This document shows, one piece after another, positions 7,002 through 41,509 of a stretch of DNA of 64,000 nucleotides. Position numbers and translations under genes: made by a program. Source of the stretch: Patescibacteria group bacterium (lineage in GTDB: Bacteria > Patescibacteriota > JACPGU01); NCBI GenBank assembly GCA_041675145.1, contig JBAYUK010000002.1, positions 280,530-344,529 on the forward strand, written 5' to 3'. A model generated the notes under the pieces. It worked only from the letters and a program-made list of their open reading frames with translations, was not told where the DNA came from and made no database searches. The first letter of the stretch is position 1. Each line of letters opens with the position of its first letter.

Positions 7002-7017
7002 AGGAGATTAGCGCCGT

Positions 7018-7386
7018 ATGAAATTCACACTTCAAAACACAAATCGCCGTAAATCGGCAGTTCGCACTCAGCAGCAGTCTTTATATAAGAGAAAAGGTTT
7101 GCAGTTTGGTCCTGTATCGCTTGGGTTCATTACGGTGTTTTTGTTTTCTCTTGTGAGCTTGTTCTACCTTGCACAGTCAAACCAGATAACTACTAAGGGA
7201 TATGTCTTACAAGACTTAGACCGTGAGAAGTCAAAGGTGGTTTCAGAGAACGAAAGACTTCAAGTTGAAGCGGCTCGTCTTGAGTCACTAACCAAGGTGA
7301 GTGAGAAAGCAGGGGAGCTCTCTATGACCCCTACTAAGACACTTCAGTACTTTGAAGATCACAACTCAGCTCTCGTTAAGAAATAG
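7018..7386 (+). CDS. ftsL: Cell division protein FtsL-like (single TM plus coiled coil).
   Basis: 122 aa. One TM helix (ITVFLFSLVSLFYLA) is followed by a leucine-zipper-like coiled coil. Position is between rsmH and ftsI. Confidence 0.55.
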   Translation: MKFTLQNTNRRKSAVRTQQQSLYKRKGLQFGPVSLGFITVFLFSLVSLFYLAQSNQITTKGYVLQDLDREKSKVVSENERLQVEAARLESLTKVSEKAGELSMTPTKTLQYFEDHNSALVKK

Positions 7387-7412
7387 GTGGAAAAACTCGC
7401 AAATATGTGCTT

Positions 7413-7451
7413 AAAACACAGGTTCTCGTGCCCTGTGTTTTTTAGTATAAT
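7413..7451 (+). promoter_or_regulatory. Internal intrinsic terminator hairpin plus extended -10 promoter between ftsL and ftsI.
   Basis: ACACAGG-TTCTCGTGC-CCTGTGT followed by TTTTT (7416-7443). Then TAGTATAAT lies at 7443-7451, 7 nt before the ftsI ATG. Confidence 0.5.
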
Positions 7452-7457
7452 ACCTCT

Positions 7458-9236: not shown

Positions 9237-9240
9237 TTGC

Positions 9241-10464: not shown

Positions 10465-10475
10465 CGAGGTATATC

Positions 10476-11489
10476 ATGGAGAATATTACACCAATTGTAG
10501 ATGTATTTGTTTTTACCTTTATGGCATTTGTTGTGTCTATGATTTGGACGCCTTTTCTAACGAATCTTTTATATAAATTTAAGATAGCAAAACAAATTGC
10601 TGAGAAATCGTGGGATGGTGCTGAAGTACCAGTTTTTCAAAAGTTCCATGGTCACAAAGCAGGAACTCCAACTATGGGAGGTTTGATAGTAGTAGTTACT
10701 ACTTTTATTTTGACGTTACTCTTTAACCTTGATCGTAACCAGACCTGGCTACCTCTTTTTGTTTTAGTAGCTACCGGTATCCTCGGTGCATTTGATGATA
10801 TTTCAAATATTCGTGGCAAGGGATCAATTAAGGGTATGGGTATTCGTTCAAAGATGCTGTGGCAACTAGTTATCACTGCACTAGGTGCATGGTGGTTTTA
10901 TAGTAAATTAGGATTTGATTCTATTCACTTTCCAGGAGTAGGTGATTTTCACCTAGGCTTTTGGTATGTGCCATTCTTTATATTCTTTGTAGTTGGCTTT
11001 ATGAATTGTGTAGATATAACTGATGGCCTCGATGGCCTCTCTGGTGGGACTCTCTCAATTGCCTTTGCTGCCTTTGGGGTTATTGCGTACTCGCAAGGGA
11101 ACATACTGCTTGCTATTTTCTGTGCCACTATTATTGGGTCTCTGATTACCTTCTTGTGGTTTAATATCCATCCGGCACGGTTTTTTATGGGGGGAACCGG
11201 AGCCTACGCATTAGGGGCAACTCTGGCTGTTATCGCGTTTCTTACTAATTCGGTTGTGGCGCTATGTATTATCGGGGCACTCTTTATTCTTGAAGGTTCT
11301 TCTTCGCTTATCCAACGGTTTAGTAGGAAGTTTTTTAAGAAGAAAGTATTCATCTCTGCTCCATTTCACCATCACCTCCAGGCTCTCGGTTGGCCGGAAA
11401 CAAAAATCGTAATGCGTGCATGGTTGCTTGCTGCAGTTTTGGCTATTATCGGTATGGCGATTGGTATTATTGGTATGGGAGTTCACTAA
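10476..11489 (+). CDS. mraY: Phospho-N-acetylmuramoyl-pentapeptide transferase MraY.
   Basis: Polytopic membrane protein with DD-containing cytoplasmic loops (GAFDDISN, VDITDGLDGL) and conserved dcw position. Confidence 0.85.
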   Translation: MENITPIVDVFVFTFMAFVVSMIWTPFLTNLLYKFKIAKQIAEKSWDGAEVPVFQKFHGHKAGTPTMGGLIVVVTTFILTLLFNLDRNQTWLPLFVLVATGILGAFDDISNIRGKGSIKGMGIRSKMLWQLVITALGAWWFYSKLGFDSIHFPGVGDFHLGFWYVPFFIFFVVGFMNCVDITDGLDGLSGGTLSIAFAAFGVIAYSQGNILLAIFCATIIGSLITFLWFNIHPARFFMGGTGAYALGATLAVIAFLTNSVVALCIIGALFILEGSSSLIQRFSRKFFKKKVFISAPFHHHLQALGWPETKIVMRAWLLAAVLAIIGMAIGIIGMGVH

Positions 11490-11499
11490 ACAAACATCA

Positions 11500-12618
11500 A
11501 TGAAGAGATTTTCTTTCAAGAAACCAAAATCCGATCTTATACTGTCATTTACAGTATTTTTCCTCCTGTTGTTTGGGCTTATTATGATGTCGTCTGCATC
11601 TGCAGTTGTAAGTTATGAGACCTTTGGGTATAACAACTACTTTTTGTATCGTCAGATAGTATACGTGATCGTTGGATTAGTTGGACTAGTGATTGCTCAG
11701 AAACTACCATATAGTTTTTGGAAAAGCATAGCACTTCCTTTTTTGGGTGTATCGTTTGCTTTGAATGTCTTGGTTATGATACCAGGAATCGGAGTTAATC
11801 ATGGTGGAGCCCAGTCTTGGATAAATCTTGGATTCTTTCAATTTCAGCCTTCTGAAATCTTAAAGCTAGCACTTATAGTGTATTTAGCTAGTTGGCTTGA
11901 TGCTAAAAGAAAAGATATTCATTCATTTAAAAATGTCTTTATACCGTTTTGTATCTTGCTCGGCGTGGTAGCAGGAATTTTGATGAAACAACCCGATCTC
12001 GGATCTCTTTTGGTTATCGCTTTTTCAATGATTAGTATTTACTTTGTAGCTGGCGTTCCACTTATTTACTTAGGACTCATTTCTGGAGGGGGAGTGATGG
12101 CTACCTTCTTGCTGATTAAAGCTGCTCCATATCGTCTTGCTCGTCTTATGACTTTTTTACACCCAGAGCAGGATCCGCTTGGAGTAGGCTTCCATATTAA
12201 CCAAGCGTTGATTGCAGTTGGTTCAGGAGGGTTATGGGGAAGAGGTTTTGGTAAGTCGGGTCAGAAGTATACCGGATATATTCCAGAGACTCCTAACGAC
12301 TCAATTTTTGCAATCATTGCTGAGGAGCTTGGTTTTATAAAGCTACTGATAGCACCGATACTGCTCTTTATTATCTTCGCATGGCGAGGACTCGTTATTG
12401 CAAGCCACGCCTCAGACTTCTTTGGTAAGTTATTGGCCTTCGGCATTACAAGCTGGATTACTATGCAGGCGCTACTGAATATGGCTACCATGTTATCTCT
12501 CGTACCGCTTACGGGCCTCACATTACCGTTTATTAGTTACGGTGGTACATCAATTATTGTATCTCTCGTAGCTGTTGGAATATTGCTCAACATTTCTAAA
12601 TATCAGGCGGCATCATAA
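11500..12618 (+). CDS. ftsW: SEDS-family peptidoglycan glycosyltransferase FtsW.
   Basis: Start moved to the internal ATG at 11500, just after the mraY stop. SEDS motifs SEILKLALIVYLA and PDLGS are present. Confidence 0.8.
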   Translation: MKRFSFKKPKSDLILSFTVFFLLLFGLIMMSSASAVVSYETFGYNNYFLYRQIVYVIVGLVGLVIAQKLPYSFWKSIALPFLGVSFALNVLVMIPGIGVNHGGAQSWINLGFFQFQPSEILKLALIVYLASWLDAKRKDIHSFKNVFIPFCILLGVVAGILMKQPDLGSLLVIAFSMISIYFVAGVPLIYLGLISGGGVMATFLLIKAAPYRLARLMTFLHPEQDPLGVGFHINQALIAVGSGGLWGRGFGKSGQKYTGYIPETPNDSIFAIIAEELGFIKLLIAPILLFIIFAWRGLVIASHASDFFGKLLAFGITSWITMQALLNMATMLSLVPLTGLTLPFISYGGTSIIVSLVAVGILLNISKYQAAS

Positions 12619-12619
12619 C

Positions 12620-13759
12620 ATGCAACATAGAAACTTACGGATAGCTTTTGTCGGAGGGGGATCTGTTGGACATATCGCACCAAACATTGCGGTAATAGAT
12701 GCGTTGTATAAAAAAACGAAAAAAGAAAAGATACCGTTATCTGTTTACTATATTGGCCGTAGAAATACATTTGAGCGGGGTATTGTAGAGAAGGAGAATA
12801 TACACTACTACGGCATCTTTACTGGAAAGCTTCGTCGCTACTGGGATGTACGTCACCTAAGTGACCCTTTTTTAATCGCAATCGGATTCTTCCAATCACT
12901 TTTTATACTTCTATATGCACGACCTGACATGGTTTTTCTAAAAGGAGGGTTTGTGACAGTACCGGTTGCCCTTGCGTGTAAGCTACTTTTTGTACCTATG
13001 ATGGCACATGAATCAGATATTGAGCCGGGCATGGCAAACAAGCTTGCGTGTAAGCTTGGCGCATATATGGCGCTTGGGTTTAATACCTCACTGTATCCTA
13101 CTAGTATTCAAAAGAAGAGTTTCTTCTCGGGTAATCCAATTAGGCCAGATATAACTGGAAAGCTATTGGATCGAAAACAGTTATCAAAAAAATACAACCT
13201 AGATTCTAAACTACCAATTGTTCTTTTTATCGGTGGAAGCCAGGGTTCGGCAAAGATGAACAGCCTACTAGAAAGTATTCTCCCTAAACTTACAAAGAAG
13301 TTTGTTGTGATACATAGTGTTGGCAAGAATGACTATGGGCACTTTGAAGGTCTAAAAAAGGACCTAGATAGTAAATACATACAGAACTATGTAGTGTATC
13401 CATATATAGAACATGATCTAGGGTCTTTTTTACAAAACGCAAGTCTTATTGTGTCTCGAGCTGGAGTAGGGGGGATTACGGAGATTATGTATTTCAAAAA
13501 ACCGTCTATTATTATCCCGATATCCAGTAATGGTGGTCATCAAGTAACTAATGCTAACTATTTAGCTAAGAATAAAATAGCTTCAGTGTTGGATGAAAAT
13601 GTAGCTGATGGAACTATGCTGTATCGTGAAATAGAATTTGTTATTTCAAACAGAGGATTGAAAGACAGAATTACAAAAGTCGCGCCAACGTTGTTTCCAT
13701 CAAATAGCGCTCAGATAATTAGCGACGAGATAATACGTTACCTTGGTTATAGTAACTAG
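12620..13759 (+). CDS. murG: UDP-GlcNAc:lipid I GlcNAc transferase MurG.
   Basis: Start at the internal ATG 12620, 2 nt after the ftsW stop. Glycine-rich GGGSVGHIAP motif and GT28 C-terminal domain. Confidence 0.8.
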   Translation: MQHRNLRIAFVGGGSVGHIAPNIAVIDALYKKTKKEKIPLSVYYIGRRNTFERGIVEKENIHYYGIFTGKLRRYWDVRHLSDPFLIAIGFFQSLFILLYARPDMVFLKGGFVTVPVALACKLLFVPMMAHESDIEPGMANKLACKLGAYMALGFNTSLYPTSIQKKSFFSGNPIRPDITGKLLDRKQLSKKYNLDSKLPIVLFIGGSQGSAKMNSLLESILPKLTKKFVVIHSVGKNDYGHFEGLKKDLDSKYIQNYVVYPYIEHDLGSFLQNASLIVSRAGVGGITEIMYFKKPSIIIPISSNGGHQVTNANYLAKNKIASVLDENVADGTMLYREIEFVISNRGLKDRITKVAPTLFPSNSAQIISDEIIRYLGYSN

Positions 13760-13803
13760 TCTGGTTAGTGTGAATATACTCCCCGTGTTACAATAAAAGC
13801 CTT

Positions 13804-15279
13804 ATGAATACATTACCCGCAACAATTTATGGAGGACTGAAGAAGAGACTGAGACTCTTCTTGCACCCCTATGACCAGCTTTTTATCAATCCCAATACCC
13901 ATTTCCACTTTATCGGAATAGGTGGTATTGGTATGTCTGCCATCGCGTTTCTTCTGAAAGATAGGGGATATGTCGTGACTGGTTCAGACATGAAAGAATC
14001 AGACCTAACACATAAGCTTCAGGAAGCCGGAATTGAAGTAGTGGTTGGTCATGCAGAGGGTAACATCACTCAAGCAATTGATGTTGTAGTGGTCTCTTCT
14101 GCAATACCTAAAGCAAATCCCGAGATTGTTGCTGCGATAAAATCAGGAATCCCGATAGTAAAGAGATCCTTCGTACTTGGAAAGCTCATGCAGTCTAAGA
14201 AGGGTATAGCCGTTTCAGGTACTCATGGAAAGACTACTACGACTACTATGATCACGCTCATTCTTCAAGGAGGAGGGTTAGACCCATCAGCACTCATTGG
14301 TGGTGAAGTCAAAAACATTGGCGGAAACTTCCTGAGTGGAAAAGGGGATACGGTAGTAGTTGAAGCGTGTGAGTATGACCGCTCCTTCTTAGACCTCTAT
14401 CCATATATTGCAGTTATTACCAATATTGAAGCTGATCACCTCGATTATTACAGAGATATCCATGAGATAAAAAAGGCTTTTGAGAAGTTTGTTAAAAAAA
14501 TTCCAAAAGACGGCTTACTTATTATTCCATCTGATGACATGAACGCGGTAGAAGTAGCAAAGGTAGCTACCTGTAAGGTAGTAGCGTTTGGCTTTGGCGG
14601 TCGTAGTCAAATGGCAAAGGAGCTGTTTGCTCTCTACTGGGAAGTAGAAGAAGTTTCACAACGAAAAGGGGTAACTACATTTAGTTTAAGTAACGGATCG
14701 AAAACGCACGAGTTTAGTTTGAAAATTCCAGGTAAACATAATGTTTCTGATGCATGTGCTGCAATTATTGCATCTGATTTTCTAGGAGTGTCCATGGACG
14801 TTGCAGGAGAAGTGCTAAAAGGATTTGAAGGAACAAATAGAAGGTTTCAAATTAAGGGAGAGAAGAAGGATATAGTGGTGGTAGACGACTACGCTCATCA
14901 CCCAACTGAGATTCGAGCAACCCTTGAAGGTGCAAAGAAGTTCTATAAAGGCAAGAAAATAATTGCTATCTTTGAGCCCCATCAATACAGCAGAACGCAT
15001 ATGTTGTTATCTGAGTTTAGTCACTCATTTAGTAATGCGGATCTCATAATTATCCCAGACATATATCCAGTCAGAGACACGAAGGAGGATATGAAAAAGG
15101 TAAGTGCTCAGGATCTTGTTACTGCAATTAACAAGAACGGAGTAGATGCACTGTATATAAAAGACTACGATGAGATAGTTGCGTATTTACAAAAAAATAT
15201 AAAGGAAGACTCGCTAATTATGACAATAGGCGCGGGTAATGTGTATAAAATAGGCGAGATGTTTTTACAATCAAAATAG
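13804..15279 (+). CDS. murC: UDP-N-acetylmuramate--L-alanine ligase MurC.
   Basis: HFIGIGGIGMSAIA N-terminal motif and Mur ligase central/C-terminal domains. Confidence 0.85.
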   Translation: MNTLPATIYGGLKKRLRLFLHPYDQLFINPNTHFHFIGIGGIGMSAIAFLLKDRGYVVTGSDMKESDLTHKLQEAGIEVVVGHAEGNITQAIDVVVVSSAIPKANPEIVAAIKSGIPIVKRSFVLGKLMQSKKGIAVSGTHGKTTTTTMITLILQGGGLDPSALIGGEVKNIGGNFLSGKGDTVVVEACEYDRSFLDLYPYIAVITNIEADHLDYYRDIHEIKKAFEKFVKKIPKDGLLIIPSDDMNAVEVAKVATCKVVAFGFGGRSQMAKELFALYWEVEEVSQRKGVTTFSLSNGSKTHEFSLKIPGKHNVSDACAAIIASDFLGVSMDVAGEVLKGFEGTNRRFQIKGEKKDIVVVDDYAHHPTEIRATLEGAKKFYKGKKIIAIFEPHQYSRTHMLLSEFSHSFSNADLIIIPDIYPVRDTKEDMKKVSAQDLVTAINKNGVDALYIKDYDEIVAYLQKNIKEDSLIMTIGAGNVYKIGEMFLQSK

Positions 15280-15280
15280 C

Positions 15281-16165
15281 ATGCTACCATTATTTAAAAA
15301 GAAAAATAAATTCTTTCTCTCTAGACGCAAAAGGTTGCGAGCTATAGAGCAAGAGGATTCAAAACAGAAATTTGGGTTTAGTCTCAAAGCTCCTATTGCT
15401 ATGGCACGAAATATTCCAAAGCAATACTCAGGTGCACTTTTTGGTCGCCCGTTTCGCAAGATTCATTTTTCTTTTACGCAAATAGGAATTGGGTTGTTAC
15501 TAATGGTTGTCGTAGCATACTTAATGTTTTTTTCTTCTCTATTTAAGATTAAAAAAATAGAGATAGTGAACAACAAAGTTTTAATCGCAGATGATGTTGC
15601 TCATTTCTTAGAAGATAGAAATATAAAAGAGAAGAACATTTTCTTACTTAATGTTAACCAGACTAGGGATATTCTTAAGCAATACTACCGGCGCATTGAT
15701 GATGTGAGAATATATAAGGTAGTACCAAATAAACTAAAAATAAAGATACAAGAAAAGCCGAGCACAATTTTGTGGCAGATAGAAGATAGGAAATACCTTA
15801 TAGATACCCAAGGGTATGTACTAGGGGAGGCAACTCCAAATGAGACAAGTATGCCAGTTGTAAAAGATGAAGCGAAGATTCCAGTTCATGAAAAAGATCG
15901 TATTGTGACTAAGGCGTTTATTAACTTTGTTAATACGGTGGATGAGAGTCTAAAAAAGAGAGTAGGACTCGGAGTAGATGGATATAGTATTGACCAAACT
16001 ACCTTCGAACTTAAAGCACACATTAATAGTGGTTTTTATTTGGTCTTTGATACAACTAAAGATCCAGCTGAACAGTTGGATAAACTCATGAAGGTATATG
16101 AGAAAGGTGAAATAATTCGTGAGTATGTGATACTCTCTATTGAAGGAAAGGTGATAGTAAAATAA
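15281..16165 (+). CDS. ftsQ: Cell division protein FtsQ/DivIB-like (TM plus POTRA).
   Basis: Basic N-terminus, one TM helix, then a POTRA-like domain (KIKKIEIVNNKVL...). Position is after murC. Confidence 0.55.
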   Translation: MLPLFKKKNKFFLSRRKRLRAIEQEDSKQKFGFSLKAPIAMARNIPKQYSGALFGRPFRKIHFSFTQIGIGLLLMVVVAYLMFFSSLFKIKKIEIVNNKVLIADDVAHFLEDRNIKEKNIFLLNVNQTRDILKQYYRRIDDVRIYKVVPNKLKIKIQEKPSTILWQIEDRKYLIDTQGYVLGEATPNETSMPVVKDEAKIPVHEKDRIVTKAFINFVNTVDESLKKRVGLGVDGYSIDQTTFELKAHINSGFYLVFDTTKDPAEQLDKLMKVYEKGEIIREYVILSIEGKVIVK

Positions 16166-30823: not shown

Positions 30824-32374
30824 ATGTTAAAGGTAAAAAAAGAGCAAAAATCTGAACCACTTGAGAAACAGCTTTTTAAAGCGGCGGATAAGCTTCGTAA
30901 GAATATTGATGCAGCAGAGTACAAGAATATTGTGCTTGGTTTGATTTTTTTGAAATATATCTCTGATTCGTTTGAAGAGAAATACAGACAGCTGACACTA
31001 GAAAAAGAACAGGGAACTGGAGCCGATCCAGAAAGTATCGACGAATATCGAGCTGAGAATGTGTTCTTTGTACCAACCGAGGCACGTTGGCAGTATCTCC
31101 ATGGTCGCTCAAAGCTCCCATCTATTGGTGAAGATCTTGATAAGGCCATGGAATCAATCGAGAAAATCAACCCAACGCTCAAAGGTATCTTGCCAAAGGT
31201 ATTTGCTCGCCCAAATCTGGACAAAGCAGCGCTTGGCGGACTGATTGACCTCGTGAGCGATATCGCGCTCGGTGACGAGGAAGCCAAATCAAAAGATATT
31301 CTTGGTCGAGTCTATGAATATTTTCTTGGTGAGTTTGCCAATGCCGAAGGAAAAAAGGGAGGGCAGTTTTATACCCCAAAATCGATCGTGAAGCTGATGG
31401 TTGAAATGATTGAACCATACAAGGGCCGCATCTATGACCCGTGTTGTGGTAGTGGCGGCATGTTTATTATGTCGGAAAAATTTGTGCAGTCTCATGCAGG
31501 CCGTATTGATGACCTTGCTATCTATGGGCAGGAGAGTAATCAAACGACCTATCGTCTCGCTCGAATGAACCTAGCGATTCGCGGCATTGATGGATCGGGT
31601 GTGAAATGGAACACCGAAGGATCGTTTCTCAAGGACGAGCACAAAGATCTCAAAGCAGATTTTATTCTCGCCAACCCACCGTTTAACGTTTCCGATTGGA
31701 GCGGGGAGTTGCTACAAACTGATCCACGTTGGCAATATGGCAAACCACCAGCAGGCAATGCGAACTTTGCTTGGTTACAACATATGGTCTATCATCTCTC
31801 GCCAAATGGTATTATGGCCTGCGTGTTGGCCAATGGTTCTCTTTCATCACAATCGAGCGGGGAAGGAGAAATCAGAAAGGCACTTGTCGACGCTGATCTA
31901 GTAGATTGTATCGTCGTGCTGCCAAAGCAACTTTTTTATAACACAGGTATCCCGGCGTGTATCTGGTTTCTGTCTCGCAAACGAATTGGTAACGGTGACC
32001 GTAAGCGTACAGGTGAGATACTATTTATCGACGCGTCCGACACTGGCTATATGGCAGACCGCACTCATCGTGAGTTCACCGACGAAGATGTCACCATGAT
32101 TGCCGACACCTATCATGAATGGCGCAAAGTTGGCGGTAAATACGAAGACCAAAAGGGTTTCTCAAAATCCGCAACACTCGCTGATATCAAAAAACACAAC
32201 TATGTCCTCATCCCTGGTAGCTATGTCGGCATCAAAGCCGCCGAGGACGACGGAATATCGTTTGAAGAAAAGATGAAAAAGTTGACAGGAGAGCTGAAGG
32301 AACAGATAAAAGAGGAAGAGAGGTTAAATGAGGAGATTAAGAAGCAGCTGAATAAAATTGGAATTAAATTATAG
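30824..32374 (+). CDS. hsdM: Type I restriction-modification system methyltransferase subunit HsdM (N6-adenine).
   Basis: HsdM N-terminal domain, SAM motif ([10 protein letters not shown]), catalytic NPPF (ANPPFN), and a C-terminal coiled coil. Confidence 0.9.
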
Positions 32375-32376
32375 AT

Positions 32377-33009
32377 ATGGGTTTAATCTTTACACCTCCT
32401 AAGTACCAAGCTAGTTCGTTTAATTGTCCTCACTGTAGGGCGTTTTCTCAGATGATTTGGAGTAACACCCATTATAATAGTGGAAGGTATACGGTTGATA
32501 ACCTTGAAATCTCTCACTGCTTTCACTGTAAAGACTTTTCTTTATGGCTAAATGCGAAAATGATTTACCCAGCAAAAATACTTGTAGATTCCCCAAACTC
32601 TGATTTGCCAGAAGATATAAAGAAAGACTACCTAGAAGCAGCTAGTATTTTAAGTGAGTCATCGCGTGGTTCATCTGCGTTGCTCCGTATTGCTATTGAG
32701 AAGCTGGTAAATTATCTTGGGGCATTAGGAAGTAATCTTAATGCTAAGATTGGGTTCTTGGTTTCTGATAGAAATCTTAATCCAAAGATTCAAAAATCTT
32801 TAGATGTAGTGCGGGTGATTGGAAATAATGCGGTTCATCCCGGATTGATTGATTTAACTGACGATCGCTCTACGGCAGAATTGCTTTTTAAGTTAGTAAA
32901 TATTATAGCAAAAGAAATGATAACTGAACCAAATGAAGTTGACTCAATATATAGTGAACTAGTACCAGAAAAAAATAAAATTGCGATCAAGAAGCGAGAC
33001 ACAAAATAA
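32377..33009 (+). CDS. DUF4145-like protein with an N-terminal CxxC...CxxC zinc ribbon, embedded in the R-M operon.
   Basis: Conserved block KIQKSLDVVRVIGNNAVHPG, an R..GN..H signature as in DUF4145. It starts 3 nt after the hsdM stop. Confidence 0.5.
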   Translation: MGLIFTPPKYQASSFNCPHCRAFSQMIWSNTHYNSGRYTVDNLEISHCFHCKDFSLWLNAKMIYPAKILVDSPNSDLPEDIKKDYLEAASILSESSRGSSALLRIAIEKLVNYLGALGSNLNAKIGFLVSDRNLNPKIQKSLDVVRVIGNNAVHPGLIDLTDDRSTAELLFKLVNIIAKEMITEPNEVDSIYSELVPEKNKIAIKKRDTK

Positions 33010-33013
33010 CTAT

Positions 33014-33586
33014 ATGAATAGAAAAGAAGTTATAAATAAGATTGAAGAATTCCGTCAAACTTGTAAAGAATACAGCAAGCTTCTTTTGGATTCTCGCGAT
33101 AGTGTTGTGCCTGAGATCGTTCGTAATCATGATTCAATTGATGAGGCAAAGGCAGATTTGAGCAGATCCTTTGCTTTTTTGGAAGAATATATTATTAAGT
33201 TTGGTAATAACCCTAGAATGAGTGACGGTGTTTGGAATGTCACATACTCTCCTTATAGTAACGCATTTAGCACTGATACACTTGTTCGTGTTGCCCCATC
33301 ATTAGACAGAGTTGTTGACGATCTTAATATTGTCTTGGGTAGAATCGAAGCTACTACTGACAGTGAATTCGCAGAGAAGATGAACCCTTTACCACAAAAT
33401 AGCAGTGGAGAGAGCGACAGTAAGGAAGTAACAATCAATGATATAGAAAAACCTCATAAAGAGTACTGGAATATGGTCTTCGCATCACTTATGGGCTGGG
33501 CGAGGTCACATGTTTCTACGGTGATCGCAGGTGTTATAATTACACTAATTGCTGGCTTCTTACTTTTTAAACTTGGCTGGAACTAA
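33014..33586 (+). CDS. Hypothetical protein with a C-terminal transmembrane anchor, embedded in the R-M operon.
   Basis: The start is chosen at ATG 33014, 5 nt after the upstream stop. The body is acidic and helical, and the C-terminus has a TM helix (VSTVIAGVIITLIAGFLLF). Confidence 0.45.
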   Translation: MNRKEVINKIEEFRQTCKEYSKLLLDSRDSVVPEIVRNHDSIDEAKADLSRSFAFLEEYIIKFGNNPRMSDGVWNVTYSPYSNAFSTDTLVRVAPSLDRVVDDLNIVLGRIEATTDSEFAEKMNPLPQNSSGESDSKEVTINDIEKPHKEYWNMVFASLMGWARSHVSTVIAGVIITLIAGFLLFKLGWN

Positions 33587-33587
33587 A

Positions 33588-34733
33588 ATGACGTTCACAT
33601 CTTCGAAAAATTGGAAGACAGTAGACTTGTCAGAATTGGCAGCTTTTTCGAATGGGAAAAGTTCCCCAGATAGGCTTGAGAGCGGACAGTATCCAGTTTA
33701 CGGAGCTAATGGAATTATTGGTTTTACTGATATAAAGAATTCTGATAAAGAATCAATTATTATCGGTAGAGTCGGATCGTATTGTGGAAGTCTATATTTC
33801 TCAGAAAATGAGTCATGGGTTACTGATAATGCTATTATCTGTAAAGCAAAAGATAATTCTGATCCAAAATTTATTTTTTATTTACTAAATACATTAGGCT
33901 TAAACTCTCGTGCAGCAGGATCTGGTCAACCACTAATAAACCAGTCAATTTTAGGGTCTATAGAAGTCATTATCCCACAAAAGAAGGAGGAGCAAAAAGA
34001 AGTTGCGGCGGTGTTAGGGTGTTTGGATGACAAGATTGAGCTGTTGCGGCGAGAGAATAAAACGCTCGCAAGCATCGCGCAAGCGATATTTAAAGAATGG
34101 TTTGTAGATTTCCGATTTCCTGGGCACGAAAAGGTAAAGATGATTGATGGACTGCCTGAGGAGTGGAAGGTTGGTAAGTTAGGGGAGTTTTGCAATATCT
34201 CAATTGGACGAACTCCACCACGAAAAGAAGAAGAATGGTTTTCGAAATATCCAAGTGATGTAAAATGGATTTCTATTAAAGACATGGGAACAAGCGGGGC
34301 TTATATTTTTAATACTTCAGAATATTTAACCCAAGAAGCAGTGGATAATTTTAATATTCCTGTGATTCCAGAAAATACTGTGATTATTAGTTTCAAGATG
34401 ACGCTTGGACGTGTTGCAATTACAACCGAAGAAATGCTTTCAAATGAAGCGATTGCACACCTAAAACCAAAAGATAATCTTTCGCCAGAATTTCTGTATC
34501 TAACCATGAAGAATTTTGATTTTAATTCTATGGGTAGTACTTCATCTATTGCAAGTGCTGTAAATTCACAATCGATCAAGGATATGGAAATTGTAGCTGG
34601 AGGTGATCATATAATGAAATTATTTAGCCAAATTACTAGCCCTATTTTTGAGAGATTAAAAAACGGAGCAAAAGAAATCCAAACCCTGTCCAGGTTGAGG
34701 GATGATTTGTTGAATAAGATTTTTAATGTATGA
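33588..34733 (+). CDS. hsdS: Type I R-M specificity subunit HsdS (two target-recognition domains).
   Basis: Start is at ATG 33588, 1 nt after the upstream stop. A central conserved coiled-coil region (EVAAVLGCLDDKIELLRRENKTLASIAQAIFKEWF) and a matching C-terminal repeat are present. Confidence 0.85.
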   Translation: MTFTSSKNWKTVDLSELAAFSNGKSSPDRLESGQYPVYGANGIIGFTDIKNSDKESIIIGRVGSYCGSLYFSENESWVTDNAIICKAKDNSDPKFIFYLLNTLGLNSRAAGSGQPLINQSILGSIEVIIPQKKEEQKEVAAVLGCLDDKIELLRRENKTLASIAQAIFKEWFVDFRFPGHEKVKMIDGLPEEWKVGKLGEFCNISIGRTPPRKEEEWFSKYPSDVKWISIKDMGTSGAYIFNTSEYLTQEAVDNFNIPVIPENTVIISFKMTLGRVAITTEEMLSNEAIAHLKPKDNLSPEFLYLTMKNFDFNSMGSTSSIASAVNSQSIKDMEIVAGGDHIMKLFSQITSPIFERLKNGAKEIQTLSRLRDDLLNKIFNV

Positions 34734-36232
34734 GAAATATTCTGGACTTTACGAATGTGGAGGCAAGAAGCTTTCTTCTCAAGGGAGATAGTTATGTTAA
34801 CTTTGATCTCCCAAAGTATTTTACATTCGATGATTTAATCAAAAAAATATCAAATAAGATTGATAATAAAGAGTTATCAGATTTTTATGCAACTACTAAG
34901 CCTAATCATCCAAAGACTTTTGATGAAGTTAATTATGTTTTGCTAAATAATAAAGATGGTAGGTATGCATGGAGGCCATTTGAAATAATCCATCCGACAA
35001 TATATGTCTACTTAGTTCATCGGATTACAGAGATAAATAATTGGCAAACTATATTGAATAGATTTAGATGCTTCAAAGAACATACGGTAATATCTTGCAT
35101 GAGTCTACCTATTGAATCAGAAAATAGCGACAGTGATAAGGCTAGCCAAGTTATTAATTGGTGGAATGAAGTCGAACAGCGGTCTCTTGAATGTGCCCTG
35201 GAATATGAGTATGTATATCATACTGATATTAGCGACTGCTATCCTTCGATATATACTCATTCGGTTGTCTGGGCTTTACATACAAAAGAAGTAGCTAAAA
35301 GAGAAATAAGAAACAATAGTTTATTAGGGAATATTATTGATGGATGTCTTCAATCAATGTCTTACGGTCAAACAAATGGGATACCTCAGGGTAGCGTTCT
35401 GATGGATCTTTTGGCGGAACTTGTACTTGGGTATGTAGATGAACTAGTAACAGAAAGAATGAGTCAGATTGATGTTTGTGAATATAAGATAATTAGGTAT
35501 AGAGATGATTATCGTGTCTTTGTGAATAGTCCAGAAATAGCGGAAAGAATATTAAAAATACTTACAGAGGTTCTTATTGGCCTGGGTCTAAAGTTAAATA
35601 GTAGTAAAACGGTATTATCGGTAAATGCCATAGAGTCATCCATCAAACCAGATAAGTCACATTGGATTCAGTATGGTAGTGAATTAGGGTCATTATTGGT
35701 TTTTGTCAAGCGATTACATAGCTTTTCAGGTCAATTTCCTAATTCTGGCACATTAGTTAAAATGCTCCAAAGGTTTTATAAAAAGATCGAGAACTTAGAT
35801 TCTTTAGATGACTATATTAATCCTGTAGTTATGATTAGCTATTTAGCCGATATTGCCTATAGGAATCCCAGAACTTATCCAATAGCAATAGCAGTTATTA
35901 GTAAGTTGATTCTATTTATTAAGCAAGAAGATCGCCAGGCTCTTATTGATAAAATAAGGAAGAAATTTTCTAGAATTCCCAATACAGGCCACTTAGACTT
36001 ATGGCTTCAAAGAATGACTATTAAGATTTATCCAGGTATACTATATCCAGAAAAGTTATGTAGAAGAGTCTTTGATTCAAATATTAAGATTTGGAATAGT
36101 GATTGGCTTTGTAAAGATATGCAAGATTTAATACAATCTACACCTTTAGTTGATTTCGGAGTAATCAACTCTTTTGGAGACTTTATTTCTTCACAAGAGG
36201 TAGCATTATTTAGGCAGCTACAGGACTCGTAA
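34730..36232 (+). CDS. Stand-alone reverse transcriptase (Abi/UG-like defence RT candidate), translationally coupled to hsdS.
   Basis: ATGA start/stop overlap with hsdS. RT motif 1 is RPFEIIHPTIYVY. Motif A is YHTDISDCYPSI. Motif B' is NGIPQGSVLMDLLAELVL. Motif C is IRYRDDYRVF, with YRDD at nt 35498-35509. Motif D/E is GLGLKLNSSKTVL. A ~200-aa alpha-helical C-terminal region follows. No endonuclease or maturase domain is present. Confidence 0.8.
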   Translation: MRNILDFTNVEARSFLLKGDSYVNFDLPKYFTFDDLIKKISNKIDNKELSDFYATTKPNHPKTFDEVNYVLLNNKDGRYAWRPFEIIHPTIYVYLVHRITEINNWQTILNRFRCFKEHTVISCMSLPIESENSDSDKASQVINWWNEVEQRSLECALEYEYVYHTDISDCYPSIYTHSVVWALHTKEVAKREIRNNSLLGNIIDGCLQSMSYGQTNGIPQGSVLMDLLAELVLGYVDELVTERMSQIDVCEYKIIRYRDDYRVFVNSPEIAERILKILTEVLIGLGLKLNSSKTVLSVNAIESSIKPDKSHWIQYGSELGSLLVFVKRLHSFSGQFPNSGTLVKMLQRFYKKIENLDSLDDYINPVVMISYLADIAYRNPRTYPIAIAVISKLILFIKQEDRQALIDKIRKKFSRIPNTGHLDLWLQRMTIKIYPGILYPEKLCRRVFDSNIKIWNSDWLCKDMQDLIQSTPLVDFGVINSFGDFISSQEVALFRQLQDS

Positions 36233-36235
36233 TTT

Positions 36236-39200
36236 ATGAAAATTATAAATGAATCCACAATTGAACAACTTACAATCGATCTTCTTCGCGAAGCGGGGTT
36301 TTTGTATAAAAGCTCTGAGGAATTAGAACTTCAGAGACCAGATTTATCGCAGGTTGTTTTGCGAGTATGGCTTATTGCGGCTATTAAGAGGCTCAATTCT
36401 GGTTTGCCAGTTGAGGCACATAATTTTGTAATAAATCAGATCACTAATACAGTGAGTCTAACTGACAAAGTAGTCGAGAATAATAGAGCAGTACATCGAC
36501 TGCTTGTCGAAGGTGTGCCAGTAGAGATATCGGAAGACGGGCATATGCGCGGATATAACGTGCGAGTCATCGATTGGGATGACATGTCTAAAAATGAGTT
36601 TGTAGTAACGAATCAATTTTATATAAAGGGTCTGGAGCGAGATAAGATCCCCGATATTGTATTGTTTGTAAACGGATTGCCTTTGGTGGTGATAGAGCTC
36701 AAGGATGCGAAGAACGAAGACGCGACGGTACATAAGGCGTTTACTCAACTGACGAACTATCAGAAAGCTATTCCTGATTTGTTTGCCTATAATGGTATAC
36801 TCGTTGTCTCTGATGGTCTCGATGCTCGAGCGGGTACGATCACGAGCGGTTTTGATCGTTTCCTGGCATGGAAATCAGTAGATGGAACGAAGGATGCGCA
36901 GCGGACAACACCAGAGATTGAGACTTTGGTGCTTGGCATGTTGCGACCCGAAGTATTGCTGGATCTGATCCGAAACTTTACTGTGTATGAAGAGGAAAAA
37001 AAGACGTTGGATGACGGATCTTTGGAAATTCGCACGATTAAGAAAACGGCGGCGTATCATCAATATTTTGCAGTACAAAAGGCGATTGATTCAACCATTC
37101 ACGCGACTGAGTCTGATCACAGAGCTGGTGTGGTGTGGCACACGCAGGGATCAGGGAAATCGCTTTCGATGGTCTTTTACGCTGGGAAGATTATCCAGAG
37201 ATTGGGAAATCCGACTATTGTGGTGCTGACTGATCGCAATGACCTGGATCAGCAGTTATTTGATACTTTTGCGGGAGCCAAGGATTTGTTGCGCCAAGAC
37301 CCGGTGCAGGCAGAAGACCGCGCTCATTTGAAAAAGTTACTCGCAACCAGTGGTGGCGGGGTGATATTTACTACGATTCAAAAATTCTCACTCGAAGAAG
37401 GTGAGAAGGAATACCCGATGTTGTCTGACAGATCAAATATTATCGTCATGGCCGATGAGGCGCACCGATCGCAGTATGGATTTGATGCAAAGGTGCGGGA
37501 GGTGCGTGGTGTGGATGGGATTACGAATGGGGCGATCGTTTCGTATGGATTTGCCAAATATGTCCGGGACGCATTGCCAAATGCTTCTTTCCTTGGATTT
37601 ACCGGGACGCCGATCGAAAAGGGTGATGCGAATACTAGGGCGGTCTTTGGTGACTATGTTGACGTGTATGATATTCAAGCGGCGGTAGAAGACGGTGCGA
37701 CTGTGCCGATTAGCTACGAGTCGCGACTGGTAAAGCTCGAATTTAACGATACCGAAAAAGCTGAACTCGACCGAGCAGTAGATGAAGTGCTGGAAAGTGA
37801 AGAAACAAGTGTAACGGAAAAAGCAAAGGCTAAGTGGGCGCAGCTCGAGGCCGTGGTTGGGCATAGGGCGAGACTACGCGACATTGCAAAGGACCTGGTA
37901 ACGCACTTTGAAGTCCGCCAAGAAGCATTTGATGGAAAGGCGATGATTGTCGTGATGAGCCGTCGTATCGCTGTTGAGCTCTATGATGAGATTATTAAAC
38001 TACGACCACAGTGGCATGATGATAGTAAGAAAGGTGGTGTGATTAAGGTTGTGATGACAGCTGCCTCATCTGACCCGGTGGGCTTTCAGCCTCATCATAC
38101 AACTAAGGATGATCGCAAAGAGTTGGCGCTACGATTTAAAGATACGAAAGACTCCTTGAAGCTGGTGATTGTGCGGGATATGTGGCTGACAGGTTTTGAT
38201 GTGCCGTGTTTGCATACAATGTACATTGATAAGCCGATGCGGGGTGCAAATCTGATGCAGGCGATTGCCCGCGTCAATCGGGTCTATAAAGATAAGCCAG
38301 GCGGATTGATCGTTGATTATATTAGTATTGCTTCGGACCTTAAAGAAGCATTGGCTGTCTATACGGAGAGTGGCGGAAAGGGAGGTGTGATTGCCGATCA
38401 AGCAGTAGATACACTGCCACATATGTTGGCAAAATTTGAAATAGTACAAGGGATTTTGGATGGAGTGAACTATGATAAATACTTTAAAGATGATGCAAGA
38501 GGAAAACTAGAAGCGATCTTAGAAGTAGAAGATTTCTTACTTGGAAACGAAGAACGCAAAGAACGGTTTTTGAAAGAAGTAGTGGCGCTGTCAAAGCTCT
38601 TTGCCCTGGCAATGCCAAACTTGCGAGCTATTGAGATCCGTGATGAGGTGGCATTTTTCCAAGCAGTAAAGGCGCGGATTATGAAGCTCGCGAGCGACGG
38701 CGGCGGTCGCGATATAGATATTGAGACGACTATTCGACAGTTAGTTGATAAGGCGGTCGTCTCACAAGGCATTATCGATATCTTTGATGCAGCTGGGATT
38801 AAGAAGCCAGATATTTCAATTTTGTCTGACGAGTTCCTGGAAGAAATTCGAACCATGGAGCGACAGAATATTGCACTCGAATTGCTGAAAAAAATCCTCA
38901 ACGATGAATTGCGTTCACGAGGCAAGAAAAATGCAGCGCAAATGAAGAAGTTTTCAGAGATGTTGCACAATGCGATCAAGAAATATCAGAATAATCTACT
39001 GACTGCTGCGCAGGTGATTGATGAATTGATCAAGCTGGCGAAAGACGTGAAGGAGGCCGACAAGCGGGGTGAGACACTAGGGCTGACTGAAGACGAAATT
39101 GCATTTTATGATGCTCTATCGCAAAACGAAAGTGCGGAAAAAGTGCTAGGTGACGACAAGCTCAAGGAGTTGGCACGAATTCTGGTAGGAAGGGTGCGTG

Positions 39201-39367
39201 AAAACGCCACGATCGACTGGAGTTTGCGAGAGACTTCACGAGCACGCATGCGAGTGATGGTGAGACGATTACTGAATCAATATGGCTACCCGCCAGATTT
39301 TCAAGAGATCGCCACCGAAACGGTGTTGGAGCAAGCGGAGTTGTTTGCGAAGGAAGAGATAAGATAG
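36236..39367 (+). CDS. hsdR: Type I restriction enzyme endonuclease/translocase subunit HsdR.
   Basis: PD-(D/E)xK nuclease motif ([18 protein letters not shown]), SF2 helicase motifs ([15 protein letters not shown]), and a C-terminal helical domain. It starts 3 nt after the RT stop. Confidence 0.9.
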
Positions 39368-39415
39368 CTACTTTTAAATAGAGCCGTATGGCTATATTTT
39401 TGTTATAATACACTT

Positions 39416-39688
39416 ATGCTAGAGCAAAAAGAAATGTATGTCGATCAGTACCTAAGGGAGAACGGCAGGCTGCTTGAGGAGCGGCCCGCCACTGGTCAGG
39501 CGTTTGAGCTTAATGGAGCTTATTATTGGACCTGCTATTTGCTGACGGTAAAGATACCGCAAGGTGAGCATAAGAAGAGAATATTTCTTCATATTGGTGC
39601 ATTCTTGCCATTTGATTGGCGCCCAGTTGATGAGTACGATGTTCCTGGCTTGATAGATTTCTTAAACATGTATTACCGTAAGAGCTAG
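39416..39688 (+). CDS. Hypothetical 90-aa protein (possible antitoxin partner of the downstream zeta-like kinase).
   Basis: Its own TTGTTATAAT promoter is at 39398-39407. No recognisable motifs. Confidence 0.35.
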   Translation: MLEQKEMYVDQYLRENGRLLEERPATGQAFELNGAYYWTCYLLTVKIPQGEHKKRIFLHIGAFLPFDWRPVDEYDVPGLIDFLNMYYRKS

Positions 39689-39690
39689 CT

Positions 39691-39750
39691 ATGCCAAAAT
39701 ACTACAACTCACAACGGAAAAAAAAGAGCTGTATCAGCCTGCAGAGATAA
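39691..39750 (+). pseudogene. Degenerate duplicate of the 5' end of the Cas4-like nuclease gene (19-codon remnant MPKYYNSQRKKKSCISLQR*).
   Basis: 39691-39745 aligns with 40709-40762: ATG(C/T)CAAAATACTACA...CACAACG...CTGTAT. The reading frame is disrupted at an A8 run. Confidence 0.5.
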
Positions 39751-39768
39751 CTTCTCGACAGGCTCGAA

Positions 39769-40485
39769 GTGACCCATAACTCAACCATGACAGACGAACA
39801 AATACAAAAAAATGCGGACCAATATTTAAAAGATCACAAGGCAGATATCCTAGAGATGTTTGCGAGTCCAGAACACTATTTTCCGACTGAAACACCGGTT
39901 ACTATCTTTATGGCTGGTTCTCCTGGAGCAGGTAAGACTGAAGTCGCTAGCGCTTTGTTTGATGAGTTGAGGAGCATGAAGAGTCCTCCTGTTAGAATAG
40001 ATGCAGATATGATTAGGTCTATGCTGCCCGGGTATGTAGGCGGGAACGCTCATGTATTCCAAAAAACAGCTAGTACGGGAGTGCATATATTGTTTGACTA
40101 TGCGTTAAAGCATAACCTGAACGTTATCCTCGATGGTACTTTTTCACATAGTAGTGCATCGCAAAACATCGAAAGGTCTTTGAAGCGAGGTAGGACGGTT
40201 ATTATTTATTTTGTATACCAGGATCCTCTTATTGCCTGGCGTTTTACACAGGCGCGCGAAGCTATCGAAGGGAGACGGGTAACAAAGGAGACGTTTATCA
40301 ATGCATTTTTAAAGTCGCGGGATAATGTTCGACTAGTTAAGGAACAATTTGGCTCAGAGATTAGGCTCGACGTTATACTAAAAGACTTCACGCACGACAT
40401 CGGACAGGTATTTACTGATGTAGCTGAAATTGACCAGTTCCTCCCAAAGGCATATACTAAAGAAGAACTAGAGACTCTTATATGA
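39769..40485 (+). CDS. Zeta-toxin-like P-loop kinase (AAA/zeta_toxin family).
   Basis: Walker A MAGSPGAGKT, then RIDADMIRS, which corresponds to the zeta IDGD catalytic Asp region, then NVILDGTF. Confidence 0.55.
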   Translation: MTHNSTMTDEQIQKNADQYLKDHKADILEMFASPEHYFPTETPVTIFMAGSPGAGKTEVASALFDELRSMKSPPVRIDADMIRSMLPGYVGGNAHVFQKTASTGVHILFDYALKHNLNVILDGTFSHSSASQNIERSLKRGRTVIIYFVYQDPLIAWRFTQAREAIEGRRVTKETFINAFLKSRDNVRLVKEQFGSEIRLDVILKDFTHDIGQVFTDVAEIDQFLPKAYTKEELETLI

Positions 40486-40682
40486 TGAAAATACAAGCAA
40501 TAAAACATATAGTACAAAAGGCTAAGAAAGATACAAAGCAGGAGTTCTCTGACTTCTTTCGTAATGCACCAAAAGAAGAGCAAATAGCGCTCCTTAAACG
40601 AGTAGCTCAGAAAGCAAATAAAGAACAAAAAGCAGTAGTAGATAAATATAAAAAAACATTAGCTAGAAAAATCGCTCGTTAA
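40482..40682 (+). CDS. Small Lys-rich basic protein (66 aa), hypothetical, overlapping the zeta-like gene by ATGA.
   Basis: 4-nt overlap with the upstream gene. A terminator hairpin overlaps its stop codon. Confidence 0.4.
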   Translation: MMKIQAIKHIVQKAKKDTKQEFSDFFRNAPKEEQIALLKRVAQKANKEQKAVVDKYKKTLARKIAR

Positions 40683-40696
40683 GAGCGGTTTTTTGG
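40669..40696 (+). terminator. Small intrinsic terminator (CGCTC-GTTAA-GAGCG followed by TTTTTT) after the zeta-like cassette.
   Basis: A 5-bp GC-rich stem plus T6. It overlaps the next gene's TGGTATAAT promoter (40694-40702). Confidence 0.4.
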
Positions 40697-40708
40697 TATA
40701 ATACATTC

Positions 40709-41509
40709 ATGTCAAAATACTACACAGCACAACGAGATAAAGGACTGTATGAACCAGGGGGTACCAAGCCCTTTAAGTTGTCGCGCTCAAAGATTGACCT
40801 TTTTATTTCATGTCCTCGGTGCTTCTATTTAGATCGCAGGCTCGGAGTTGGGCGCCCTCCAGGGTTTCCGTTTGCCTTGAACTCCGCTGTGGATACTCTT
40901 TTAAAACAGGAGTTTGATACCCACCGCGTGGCAGGTACTCGCCACCCTCTCATAGAACAGTACGGCGTTAATGCTCGGCCTGTTGCTCATGAGAACCTCG
41001 AACAATGGAGACATAACTTCACGGGAGTGCAGTACTTGCACGAGAAAACAAACTTCCAAGTATTTGGAGCAATCGACGACCTTTGGATAAATGAGGCAGG
41101 GGAATATATTGTGGTGGACTACAAGGCTACCGCGAAAGAAGAGGCCATCACTACTCTCGACAAAGACTGGCATGATGGATACAAGCGTCAGATGGAGATA
41201 TACCAGTGGTTATTGCGCCACAACGGGCATAAGGTATCAGATACGGGGTATTTCGTATACTGTAATGGTCGAGCAGATCGTGCTGCCTTTGATAAAAAGC
41301 TCGAATTTGATGTCACCCTTATCCCGTACAAGGGATCAGATGAGTGGGTAGAGGGTAAAATCAATGAGGCGTATGGGTGTCTCAACTCAGATGAGGTGCC
41401 AGTTTCATACCCTGAGTGTGACTACTGCTCATATATTAAGGCTGTGGAGTCTCACGAAGGTGCAAAAGGAGCTTCAGCTAGTAAGAAAGCACAGGGGAAG
41501 CTCTTCTAG
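40709..41509 (+). CDS. PD-(D/E)xK nuclease, Cas4/RecB-like family, with four Cys (possible Fe-S cluster). Stand-alone, with no CRISPR nearby.
   Basis: Motifs IDDLWINEAGEYIVVDYKAT (D...E.K with the DYK signature), N-terminal CPRC and C-terminal CDYC. Confidence 0.5.
   Translation: MSKYYTAQRDKGLYEPGGTKPFKLSRSKIDLFISCPRCFYLDRRLGVGRPPGFPFALNSAVDTLLKQEFDTHRVAGTRHPLIEQYGVNARPVAHENLEQWRHNFTGVQYLHEKTNFQVFGAIDDLWINEAGEYIVVDYKATAKEEAITTLDKDWHDGYKRQMEIYQWLLRHNGHKVSDTGYFVYCNGRADRAAFDKKLEFDVTLIPYKGSDEWVEGKINEAYGCLNSDEVPVSYPECDYCSYIKAVESHEGAKGASASKKAQGKLF

Follow-up and report, generated by a model that had tools for sequence, protein, structure and literature searches.

A zeta-toxin-fold kinase module beside a dead 5' fragment of a conserved nuclease gene in a Patescibacteria genome, and its possible recombinase-free insertion

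How does a two-gene module come to lie between an intact nuclease gene and a broken copy of that gene's own first codons, at a place where no gene for moving DNA is in sight? The question is raised by a stretch of 64,000 nucleotides from a Patescibacteria group bacterium (lineage Patescibacteriota; JACPGU01; assembly GCA_041675145.1, contig JBAYUK010000002.1, positions 280,530 to 344,529 of the forward strand), which is called the window here and whose internal coordinates are used throughout. In the window, the genes of a zeta-toxin-fold P-loop kinase and of a small partner protein are flanked by direct repeats, the downstream copy being the 5' end of an intact PD-(D/E)XK nuclease gene and the upstream copy a dead fragment of such a gene. 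Judged from the sequence of this locus and of its relatives, the module, together with its leader, terminator and promoter, appears with moderate confidence to be foreign DNA that was inserted without a recombinase into the nuclease 5' end, by a one-ended recombination of the type known as homology-facilitated illegitimate recombination (HFIR). The features on which the argument depends are the following.

39691-39739, + strand: upstream repeat copy, a dead, frameshifted 5'-end fragment of the PD-(D/E)XK nuclease gene
39733-39767, + strand: imperfect inverted repeat (AGCCTGCAGAGATAACTTCTCGACAGGCT) at the right end of the upstream copy, 20 nt upstream of the kinase ATG
39787-40485, + strand: zeta-toxin-fold P-loop kinase, 232 aa, with a Walker A motif GSPGAGKT and a RIDAD motif; putative toxin
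40482-40682, + strand: small Lys-rich partner of 66 aa, with an ATGA overlap at the stop codon of the kinase gene; putative antitoxin or regulator
40662-40697, strand unassigned: intrinsic-terminator-like hairpin that overlaps the end of the partner gene at its stop codon and stands between an A-run and a U-run
40692-40708, + strand: extended -10 box resembling a promoter (TTTGGTATAATACATTC), located within the putative insert with its end 6 nt from the nuclease ATG
40709-40755, + strand: downstream repeat copy, the 5' end of the intact nuclease gene
40709-41509, + strand: intact PD-(D/E)XK nuclease gene, 266 aa (PDDEXK_1, 1.3e-13)

The repeat, the remnant and the kinase pair

Local alignment of 39600-39800 with 40600-40830 places 39691-39734 over 40709-40750 with 35/44 identical positions and two 1-nt gaps, and the match can be extended to 39739/40755 at 38/49, which gives a repeat of 47-49 nt with 78-80% identity. 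Its Smith-Waterman score is 39, while 2000 shuffles averaged 17.3 and never scored above 31, and when the upstream copy was compared with both strands of the whole window the next-best score was 24, so that the repeat is unique there. The initial annotation, which had described a direct repeat of about 55 nt, was right about its existence and overstated its length. The nuclease ATG is the exact starting point of the repeat; an extension upstream of that codon (CGTAAGAGC vs CGTTAAGAGC) was considered and discarded, the similarity not being significant, and at the other end a weak similarity of the upstream copy possibly reaches about 39775. The locus is not an assembly artefact, because two further public assemblies (ENA, Logan) are 100% identical to this one over 39300-40800, and it is thus shared by three assemblies.

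The upstream copy is an ATG-initiated open reading frame (ORF) of 19 codons, MPKYYNSQRKKKSCISLQR followed by a stop (39691-39750), which with a frameshift reads on as ...LYQP. It encodes MPKYYNSQR..LY.P and fits the pattern typical of N-termini in the nuclease family, MS[QEK]YY[NT][SA]QR..GLY.P...PFKLSRSKIDLF, and the description of this copy as a frameshifted 19-codon remnant of the nuclease 5' end is borne out by that motif. At two variable positions it carries NS, the commonest residues in the family, and the resident downstream copy carries TA. Over the first 26 nt the two copies are identical at 22/26 positions, and the downstream copy and the ortholog of its closest known relative (locus L171) also at 22/26; therefore, the upstream copy is no closer to the resident gene than a foreign ortholog is. 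The right end of the remnant is presumed to be an illegitimate junction. The inverted repeat that lies there belongs to a segment (39689-39790) with a predicted fold of -21.1 kcal/mol (z -3.1; stem AGCCUG...CAGGCU), and this palindrome could be either a hairpin associated with the junction or an autoregulatory operator.

The promoter-like box ahead of the nuclease gene is of a type, TTTGnTATAATA, that occurs five times in 64 kb, at 30785, 39399, 40692 and 41536 on the + strand and at 32912 on the - strand. The four + strand copies are located ahead of hsdM, of an orphan ORF designated orf90, of the nuclease gene and of the SLT gene (about 40 nt from the ATG in the last case), and none stands ahead of the remnant or of the kinase gene. 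The spacing of 6 nt between box and ATG at orf90 and at the nuclease gene suggests leaderless transcripts.

The nuclease has more than 8000 homologs, and the 120 matches listed are 69-76% identical to it and come from across the candidate phyla; its family, of proteins of about 250 aa with a nearly invariant N-terminus (MSxYYxxQR...PFKLSRSKIDLFxxCPRCFY), is among the most conserved and is near-universal in Patescibacteria. The three homologous loci inspected all differ in their surroundings, which are of a housekeeping type and not syntenic, and synteny was for that reason given up as a guide to the ancestral left neighbour. The description of the gene as a Cas4-like member of a defence island does not hold: the NCBIfam cas4 model gives 30.9 bits against a cutoff of 65, the PADLOC Cas4 matches are weak and partial, no cas genes were found in the neighbourhoods inspected, and the three homologous loci have no CRISPR context.

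In the case of the kinase, the zeta_toxin domain proposed initially was found by hidden Markov model search (Pfam Zeta_toxin, PF06414; 130.8 bits vs a cutoff of 22.3, E 5.8e-38, residues 31-191). An AlphaFold (AF2) model built from 30 homologs has a pLDDT of 91.3, and its top Foldseek matches in the PDB are zeta (1gvn, E 8e-10) and PezT (2p5t, TM-score 0.69-0.73), followed by Neisseria zeta_1 and AvrRxo1; the kinase has the zeta fold. A profile of the kinase family matches PezT at 2.8e-4, with GSPGAGKT aligned over GGQSGAGKT and RIDADEIR over IDGDSFR of PezT, both motifs being invariant in the 30 homologs. A phmmer search of the kinase against PDB sequences gave no match, and the link to PezT and zeta runs through the profile and fold searches only. 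Homologs number 1943 (E <= 0.001), the top 120 being mostly of about 232 aa and mostly from Patescibacteria, and the closest non-self ones are 50-57% identical.

The 66-aa Lys-rich partner and its ATGA overlap with the kinase gene are as first annotated. The partner has the motif (D/E)FSxFF...KAN(K/E)(D/E)Q and matches no Pfam family above threshold. An epsilon- or PezA-type antitoxin gene is absent from the position directly upstream of the kinase, where orf90 is found, and the conserved partner is encoded downstream instead, so that the label of zeta toxin stands for the fold and the Pfam domain and fails for the canonical gene order. The hairpin that had been called a terminator is likewise well supported at -16.7 kcal/mol (z -5.3; 0/200 shuffles as stable), and a terminator-like site is also predicted on the - strand at 40687-40673. 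The pair probably acts as a toxin-antitoxin, that is, an addiction module. The pathway hit by canonical zeta toxins is peptidoglycan synthesis. At 6114-16165 the window holds a complete-looking dcw cluster (mraW, ftsI, Mur ligases, mraY, ftsW, murG, murC, ftsQ) with recJ behind it, from which it follows that the organism makes peptidoglycan and that the canonical zeta target pathway exists in it.

Loci of the module were fetched from 80 species-representative (GTDB) genomes and from 80 metagenome contigs. A homologous ORF of 47-66 aa bearing DFSxFF...KANxDQ follows the kinase gene in 76/80 of the genome loci and in 69/77 of the metagenome loci, usually with a 4-nt overlap, and the neighbours of the pair vary from locus to locus across Patescibacteria; the constant pairing amid unlike neighbours therefore marks a conserved mobile two-gene unit. 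The earlier suggestion that such a unit was inserted or exchanged here is supported both by this recurrence in unrelated contexts and by the remnant, a dead piece of a nuclease gene. Restriction-modification (R-M) genes lie within a few kb of the module in at least 13 of the 160 loci, a count that has no baseline rate beside it. R-M neighbours (hsdR, hsdS or MmeI-type) are seen, for example, at L085 (105-3221), L102 (1841-2986), L116 (5-625), L005 (183-2547) and L072 (292-1413), and competence-related neighbours were observed in two loci, namely a ComF-like gene (L030) and a TfoX_N gene (L021).

Flanking repeats and the route of insertion

In all loci with enough flanking sequence, the 500 nt upstream of the kinase were compared with the 600 nt downstream of the partner, direct repeats with a score of at least 38 being counted and the metagenome set being taken after removal of duplicates of genome loci. 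Flanking repeats were found in 17/71 genome loci and in 9/39 independent metagenome loci, or 26/110 altogether (23.6%); they are 25-334 nt long (median 67), 71-100% identical, and their median distance to the ends of the module is about 58 nt. Control ORFs of 0.5-1.5 kb in the same genome loci are repeat-flanked in 10/133 cases (Fisher odds ratio 3.8, p 5e-4). Among the controls, several non-module genes stand between repeats with scores of 50-140 (L079, 1949-3206; L044, 4156-4840; L031, 7319-7910; L022, 7123-7825); some repeat-flanked controls may represent the same mode of insertion with other cargo, and tandem paralogs account for further ones, L085 (6981-7722) being an example. In none of the 26 loci did a repeat show similarity to that of another locus. 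The repeats are target sequence and not element ends or attC sites; a hairpin apparently common to L005 and L007, considered as an element-borne terminal sequence, was rejected, the all-against-all test giving no cross-locus match.

Twelve loci, including the window, have one repeat copy within an intact neighbouring gene, and in 11 of these 12 it lies at the 5' or 3' end of the gene and the other copy is truncated; the copy in a regulator-like gene (L044) is internal. Besides the nuclease of the window, the genes with terminal copies encode a Wzt-type ABC ATPase, a GH43 protein, a YgjP-like protein, an AMP-binding enzyme, a ComF-like protein, HsdS, MmeI, TfoX and a protein without a Pfam match (L126). 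The repeat boundary nearest to the module falls exactly on a start or stop codon in three loci, namely the window, L062 and L030, and in 10/11 loci its position relative to such a codon is between -30 and +20 nt. Of the three, L062 mirrors the architecture of the window, with a 182-nt, 91%-identical repeat beginning on the start codon, and the repeat of L030 is identical at 30/30 positions. When the 13 coding repeats are pooled, 37.5 synonymous differences at 145 synonymous sites and 36.5 nonsynonymous differences at 533 nonsynonymous sites give a ratio of nonsynonymous to synonymous divergence (pN/pS) of 0.27; L062 alone has pS 0.29 and pN 0.04, a ratio of 0.14. If one copy had been a dead duplicate since insertion, a ratio of at least about 0.5 would be expected, and against that expectation the pooled value has P = 0.001-0.003. 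Because this value is too low for a dead duplicate, and likewise because the repeat boundaries lie at start and stop codons, HFIR is favoured over duplication at insertion at the level of the family. A homology-facilitated event, one of the options offered in the initial annotation, is hence the best-supported mechanism for the module family as a whole.

Applied to the window, HFIR would have proceeded as follows. The donor DNA would have carried the module adjoining a homologous nuclease gene. Its right end would have entered by homologous recombination within or beyond the resident nuclease gene, and its left end would have been attached to the resident copy by an illegitimate joint, a few dozen bases inside it; a single crossover of a circularised fragment would be an equivalent form of the same route. 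The inserted segment would then be 39740-40708, comprising a short leader, the zeta-fold kinase, the partner, the terminator and an outward promoter, and the 49 nt at 39691-39739 would be what is left of the displaced 5' end of the resident nuclease gene. This would leave the downstream nuclease gene functional and, upstream, a 5' stub that is dead. At the window, the features fitting this route are the repeat that starts from the ATG, the promoter box inside the insert, and the upstream copy that is no closer to the downstream one than the latter is to its L171 ortholog. The geometry is compatible with it as well, homology being confined to the gene and starting at its ATG and the stub ending abruptly, and the assignment of the two junctions is presumptive. 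Under HFIR, a repeat that begins at the ATG below unrelated upstream flanks is expected because the homology between donor and recipient would be limited to the gene.

Insertions flanked by direct repeats are normally lost through recombination between the repeats. If the pair is an addiction module, such recombination would delete the module and kill the cell, so that the insertion would persist, and this could account for both the survival of the repeat-flanked module and its enrichment over ordinary genes. We infer the HFIR route, the toxin-antitoxin function and the stabilisation by addiction alike from these patterns. Natural competence has been shown for Saccharibacteria, which are members of Patescibacteria (PMC10633639).

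Several observations weigh against this account. The repeat of the window itself lacks a signature of purifying selection (among 13 comparable codons there are 6.5 nonsynonymous and 0.5 synonymous differences, plus two indels) and would fit an old, decaying duplicate equally well; indeed, it is too short and too decayed to choose between HFIR and duplication at insertion. Many of the relatives' repeats are non-coding, where HFIR and target duplication look alike, and 7.5% of the control genes are repeat-flanked too, some of them being tandem paralogs. The longest repeat, a non-coding one of 334 nt and 95% identity at L140 (1687-2019 vs 3060-3393), has nearly all of its differences in the first 100 nt or so and is almost identical over the other 230 nt or so, and such mosaic identity suggests later gene conversion or recombination between the copies. 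The only other locus in which the module adjoins a nuclease gene, L072, has the opposite order, nuclease then kinase. Neither an empty site nor a donor-type locus, with the module upstream of a nuclease gene that has no remnant, was found in the searched collections, because no close relative is present in them (the best nuclease match is 76% identical, the best kinase match 55%, and orf90 is an orphan). Finally, the canonical upstream antitoxin is missing, and the toxicity of the kinase and its neutralisation by the partner are putative.

A tentative extension of this account is that the kinase-partner pair may be a minimal selfish element without a recombinase, which would enter by one-ended recombination or long target duplication, be held by addiction, and possibly exit as a circle by recombination between its flanking repeats. 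If that were true, long target duplication would be a general mode of mobility of addiction modules that does not depend on DNA cleavage by what they carry, and streamlined, competent bacteria would gain genes by it to a significant extent.

The strongest competitor to HFIR, though itself rather unlikely, is an insertion that duplicates a long stretch of target, in the sense of Nobusato and Furuta, in which some 50-85 bp of the nuclease 5' end would have been duplicated at insertion, for example because the breaks were widely staggered or the process was replicative, with decay of the upstream copy afterwards. The architecture is the one described for R-M systems, with genome-unique repeats of more than 30 bp, no mobility genes and hosts that are mostly competent species (PMC2853133), and the mostly nonsynonymous differences and two indels at the window resemble the decay of a pseudogene; the perfect 30/30 repeat of L030 also speaks for it. 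Yet the pooled pN/pS is too low for one dead copy, a duplication would have had to hit a start or stop codon exactly in three loci, and the promoter of the intact copy lies within the insert and is missing upstream of the remnant, which fits poorly with a target made up of promoter plus gene.

Less probable again is a history in which two full nuclease copies, either tandem duplicates or xenologs, once flanked the module, or in which the order was nuclease then module, and the upstream copy was mostly deleted. The full nuclease gene directly ahead of the kinase at L072 offers a precedent, and a second short match, 39740-39757 against nuclease codons 100-105 (WRHNFTG; 15/18 identical), is collinear with the first fragment. 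This second match is however marginal (P 0.025 by shuffling, 0.06 empirically), and an extension of the remnant into it was not adopted, since it serves this explanation only. The remnant also shows no similarity to the L072 nuclease or to the nuclease-kinase spacer there (P 0.42-0.46), and the scheme needs more steps and leaves unexplained the short remnants at gene ends across the family.

Site-specific integration of a cassette, integron-like or att-based, with repeats that are sites partly borne by the element, is very improbable and can be regarded as largely refuted. What recalls it is a promoterless-looking two-gene cassette between direct repeats, together with two kinds of context in other genomes. 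At L003/L009 (a Moraniibacteriota genome), the module directly follows an apparent tRNA-Cys gene (GCA; about 1420-1495, judged by eye; kinase at 1512), and no significant flanking repeat was found within the tested flanks. At L026 (Wolfebacteria), five copies of a 91-nt intergenic terminator-plus-promoter unit, all oriented alike, are spread over 8.7 kb (1346-1407, 2606-2696, 3876-3966, 4884-4974 and 7068-7158), parting single genes or small units that include the kinase module and giving the look of a cassette array, with no integrase in view. Integron or att integration is excluded at the window by the locus-specific repeats together with the absence of an integrase, a transposase and a tRNA from the locus: none of the ORFs from 24.8 to 42.3 kb encodes an integrase or transposase, no tRNA gene lies near the locus, and a search of 39-42 kb for Rfam RNA families gave no match and no structured site. 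Across the family, the repeats range from 25 to 334 nt without an attC-like consensus, and the copies are ordinary coding ends of neighbouring genes; the integron-like origin once suggested for the locus thus fails on the same grounds.

That the remnant is instead a functional leader peptide or upstream ORF of the kinase operon, or a chance likeness, is hardly credible, for although an intact 19-codon ATG-initiated ORF between orf90 and the kinase, followed by a hairpin, would suit a leader, the similarity is far above chance, relatives lack such an ORF and each have their own locus-specific repeat, and the frameshifts relative to the nuclease frame argue for decay.

Surroundings of the locus

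The region upstream of the remnant is occupied by the R-M operon that the initial annotation had placed there, now identified by its hsdM, hsdS and hsdR genes, and by a single further ORF. Their features are as follows.

30824-39367, + strand: type I R-M operon (hsdM, hsdS, hsdR), upstream of orf90 and the remnant
34730-36232, + strand: AbiP2-type defence reverse transcriptase, 500 aa (PADLOC AbiP2, 2.9e-191; Pfam RVT_1)
39399-39415, + strand: extended -10 box resembling a promoter (TTTGTTATAATACACTT), with its end 6 nt from the orf90 ATG
39416-39688, + strand: orf90, an orphan ORF of 90 aa between hsdR and the remnant, outside the conserved module

The operon has the order hsdM, a DUF4145 protein gene (32377-33009), an uncharacterised ORF (32981-33586), hsdS, the AbiP2-type reverse transcriptase gene, which overlaps hsdS by 4 nt, and hsdR. 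The segment of hsdS and the reverse transcriptase is markedly AT-rich, with a guanine-cytosine (GC) fraction of 0.33-0.38 vs about 0.45 around it, and it is the only clearly AT-rich part of the operon. GC content was dropped as a sign of foreign origin of the kinase module, its value of 0.42 being uninformative against 0.42-0.46 nearby. Direct repeats on either side of the R-M island as a whole were sought by comparing 30.0-30.9 kb with 39.35-41.7 kb, and nothing but the shared promoter box appeared.

No match to orf90 was found in Pfam, NCBIfam or PADLOC, among 5.8 billion clustered proteins it matches itself only, and among 1.8 billion representative proteins there are two weak partial matches and nothing else. 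It has no homolog in the 80 genome loci of the module, and it has no relationship to an ORF of 88 aa lying ahead of the closest nuclease homolog. As an orphan in both protein databases that is absent from related loci, it was rejected both as an epsilon-like antitoxin and as a marker of the empty site. The box in front of it probably drives a leaderless transcript that reads on into the remnant and the kinase gene.

Comparison with known systems

Long target duplications around an inserted gene unit were described for R-M systems in a 2000 study, as it is cited in Furuta, Abe & Kobayashi 2010 (PMC2853133). The likeness is close: a selfish, addiction-type module without transposase or integrase lies between direct repeats some tens to hundreds of bp long, which are unique, locus-specific target sequences that sometimes overlap the ends of neighbouring genes, which are commoner than around average genes, and which are seen mostly in naturally competent lineages. 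The features by which such insertions were recognised there recur at the window, with repeats of more than 30 bp (47-49 nt), unique in 64 kb, and no adjoining mobility gene. The differences lie in the cargo, here a kinase-type toxin-like pair, in the host, here Patescibacteria, and in the repeats, which are more diverged here (71-100%) and which, where coding, bear a signature of purifying selection that points to copies from donor and recipient and not to a duplication at insertion. Since the cargo is of the kinase type and not an R-M system, the DNA breakage proposed as the cause for R-M systems cannot apply.

Such duplications have so far been documented almost only for R-M systems, and their cause has been tied, tentatively, to DNA breakage by the cargo. 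The added value of the family-wide result is that the same architecture surrounds a kinase-type module at about 24% of its Patescibacteria loci, and the selection signature in the repeats points to a transformation-driven mechanism that does not depend on the cargo. This would provide a concrete route by which ultra-small competent bacteria with few classical mobile elements could gain accessory genes. In addition, an uncharacterised family of zeta-like kinases and partners, with reversed gene order, is defined.

HFIR itself is known from natural transformation (de Vries & Wackernagel 2002; Prudhomme et al. 2002; Meier & Wackernagel 2003, as cited in PMC5361080 and PMC3240628), and it has been invoked for the displacement of effector-immunity modules of the type VI secretion system in Vibrio (PMC5361080). 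Both there and here, one homologous anchor and one illegitimate joint lie beside a conserved gene, the remains of the former occupant are orphaned, the cargo is of toxin type, and a dedicated recombinase is lacking. In contrast to the Vibrio case, the route at the window is read from sequence scars alone, and the remnant duplicates a part of the anchor gene itself and is not an orphan immunity gene.

The minimal mobile elements of Neisseria are small cassettes exchanged by transformation, without a recombinase, through recombination in conserved flanking genes. They are replaced cleanly by way of two homologous flanks and leave no partial duplicates, whereas here one side would be illegitimate and a stub remains.

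The epsilon/zeta and PezAT pairs are type II toxin-antitoxin systems whose toxins are UDP-GlcNAc kinases. With these (1gvn, 2p5t) the module shares the Zeta_toxin domain, the P-loop fold, the Walker A and IDxD-type motifs and a small co-transcribed partner, and it differs from them in an identity of only 15-20% to the solved toxins and in a partner that lies downstream and is unrelated to epsilon or PezA. A downstream partner is also found in AvrRxo1-ORF1:ORF2, and AvrRxo1 is among the fold matches of the kinase. Set beside these systems, the locus of the window is an ordinary evolutionary scar of a known kind of recombinase-free insertion.

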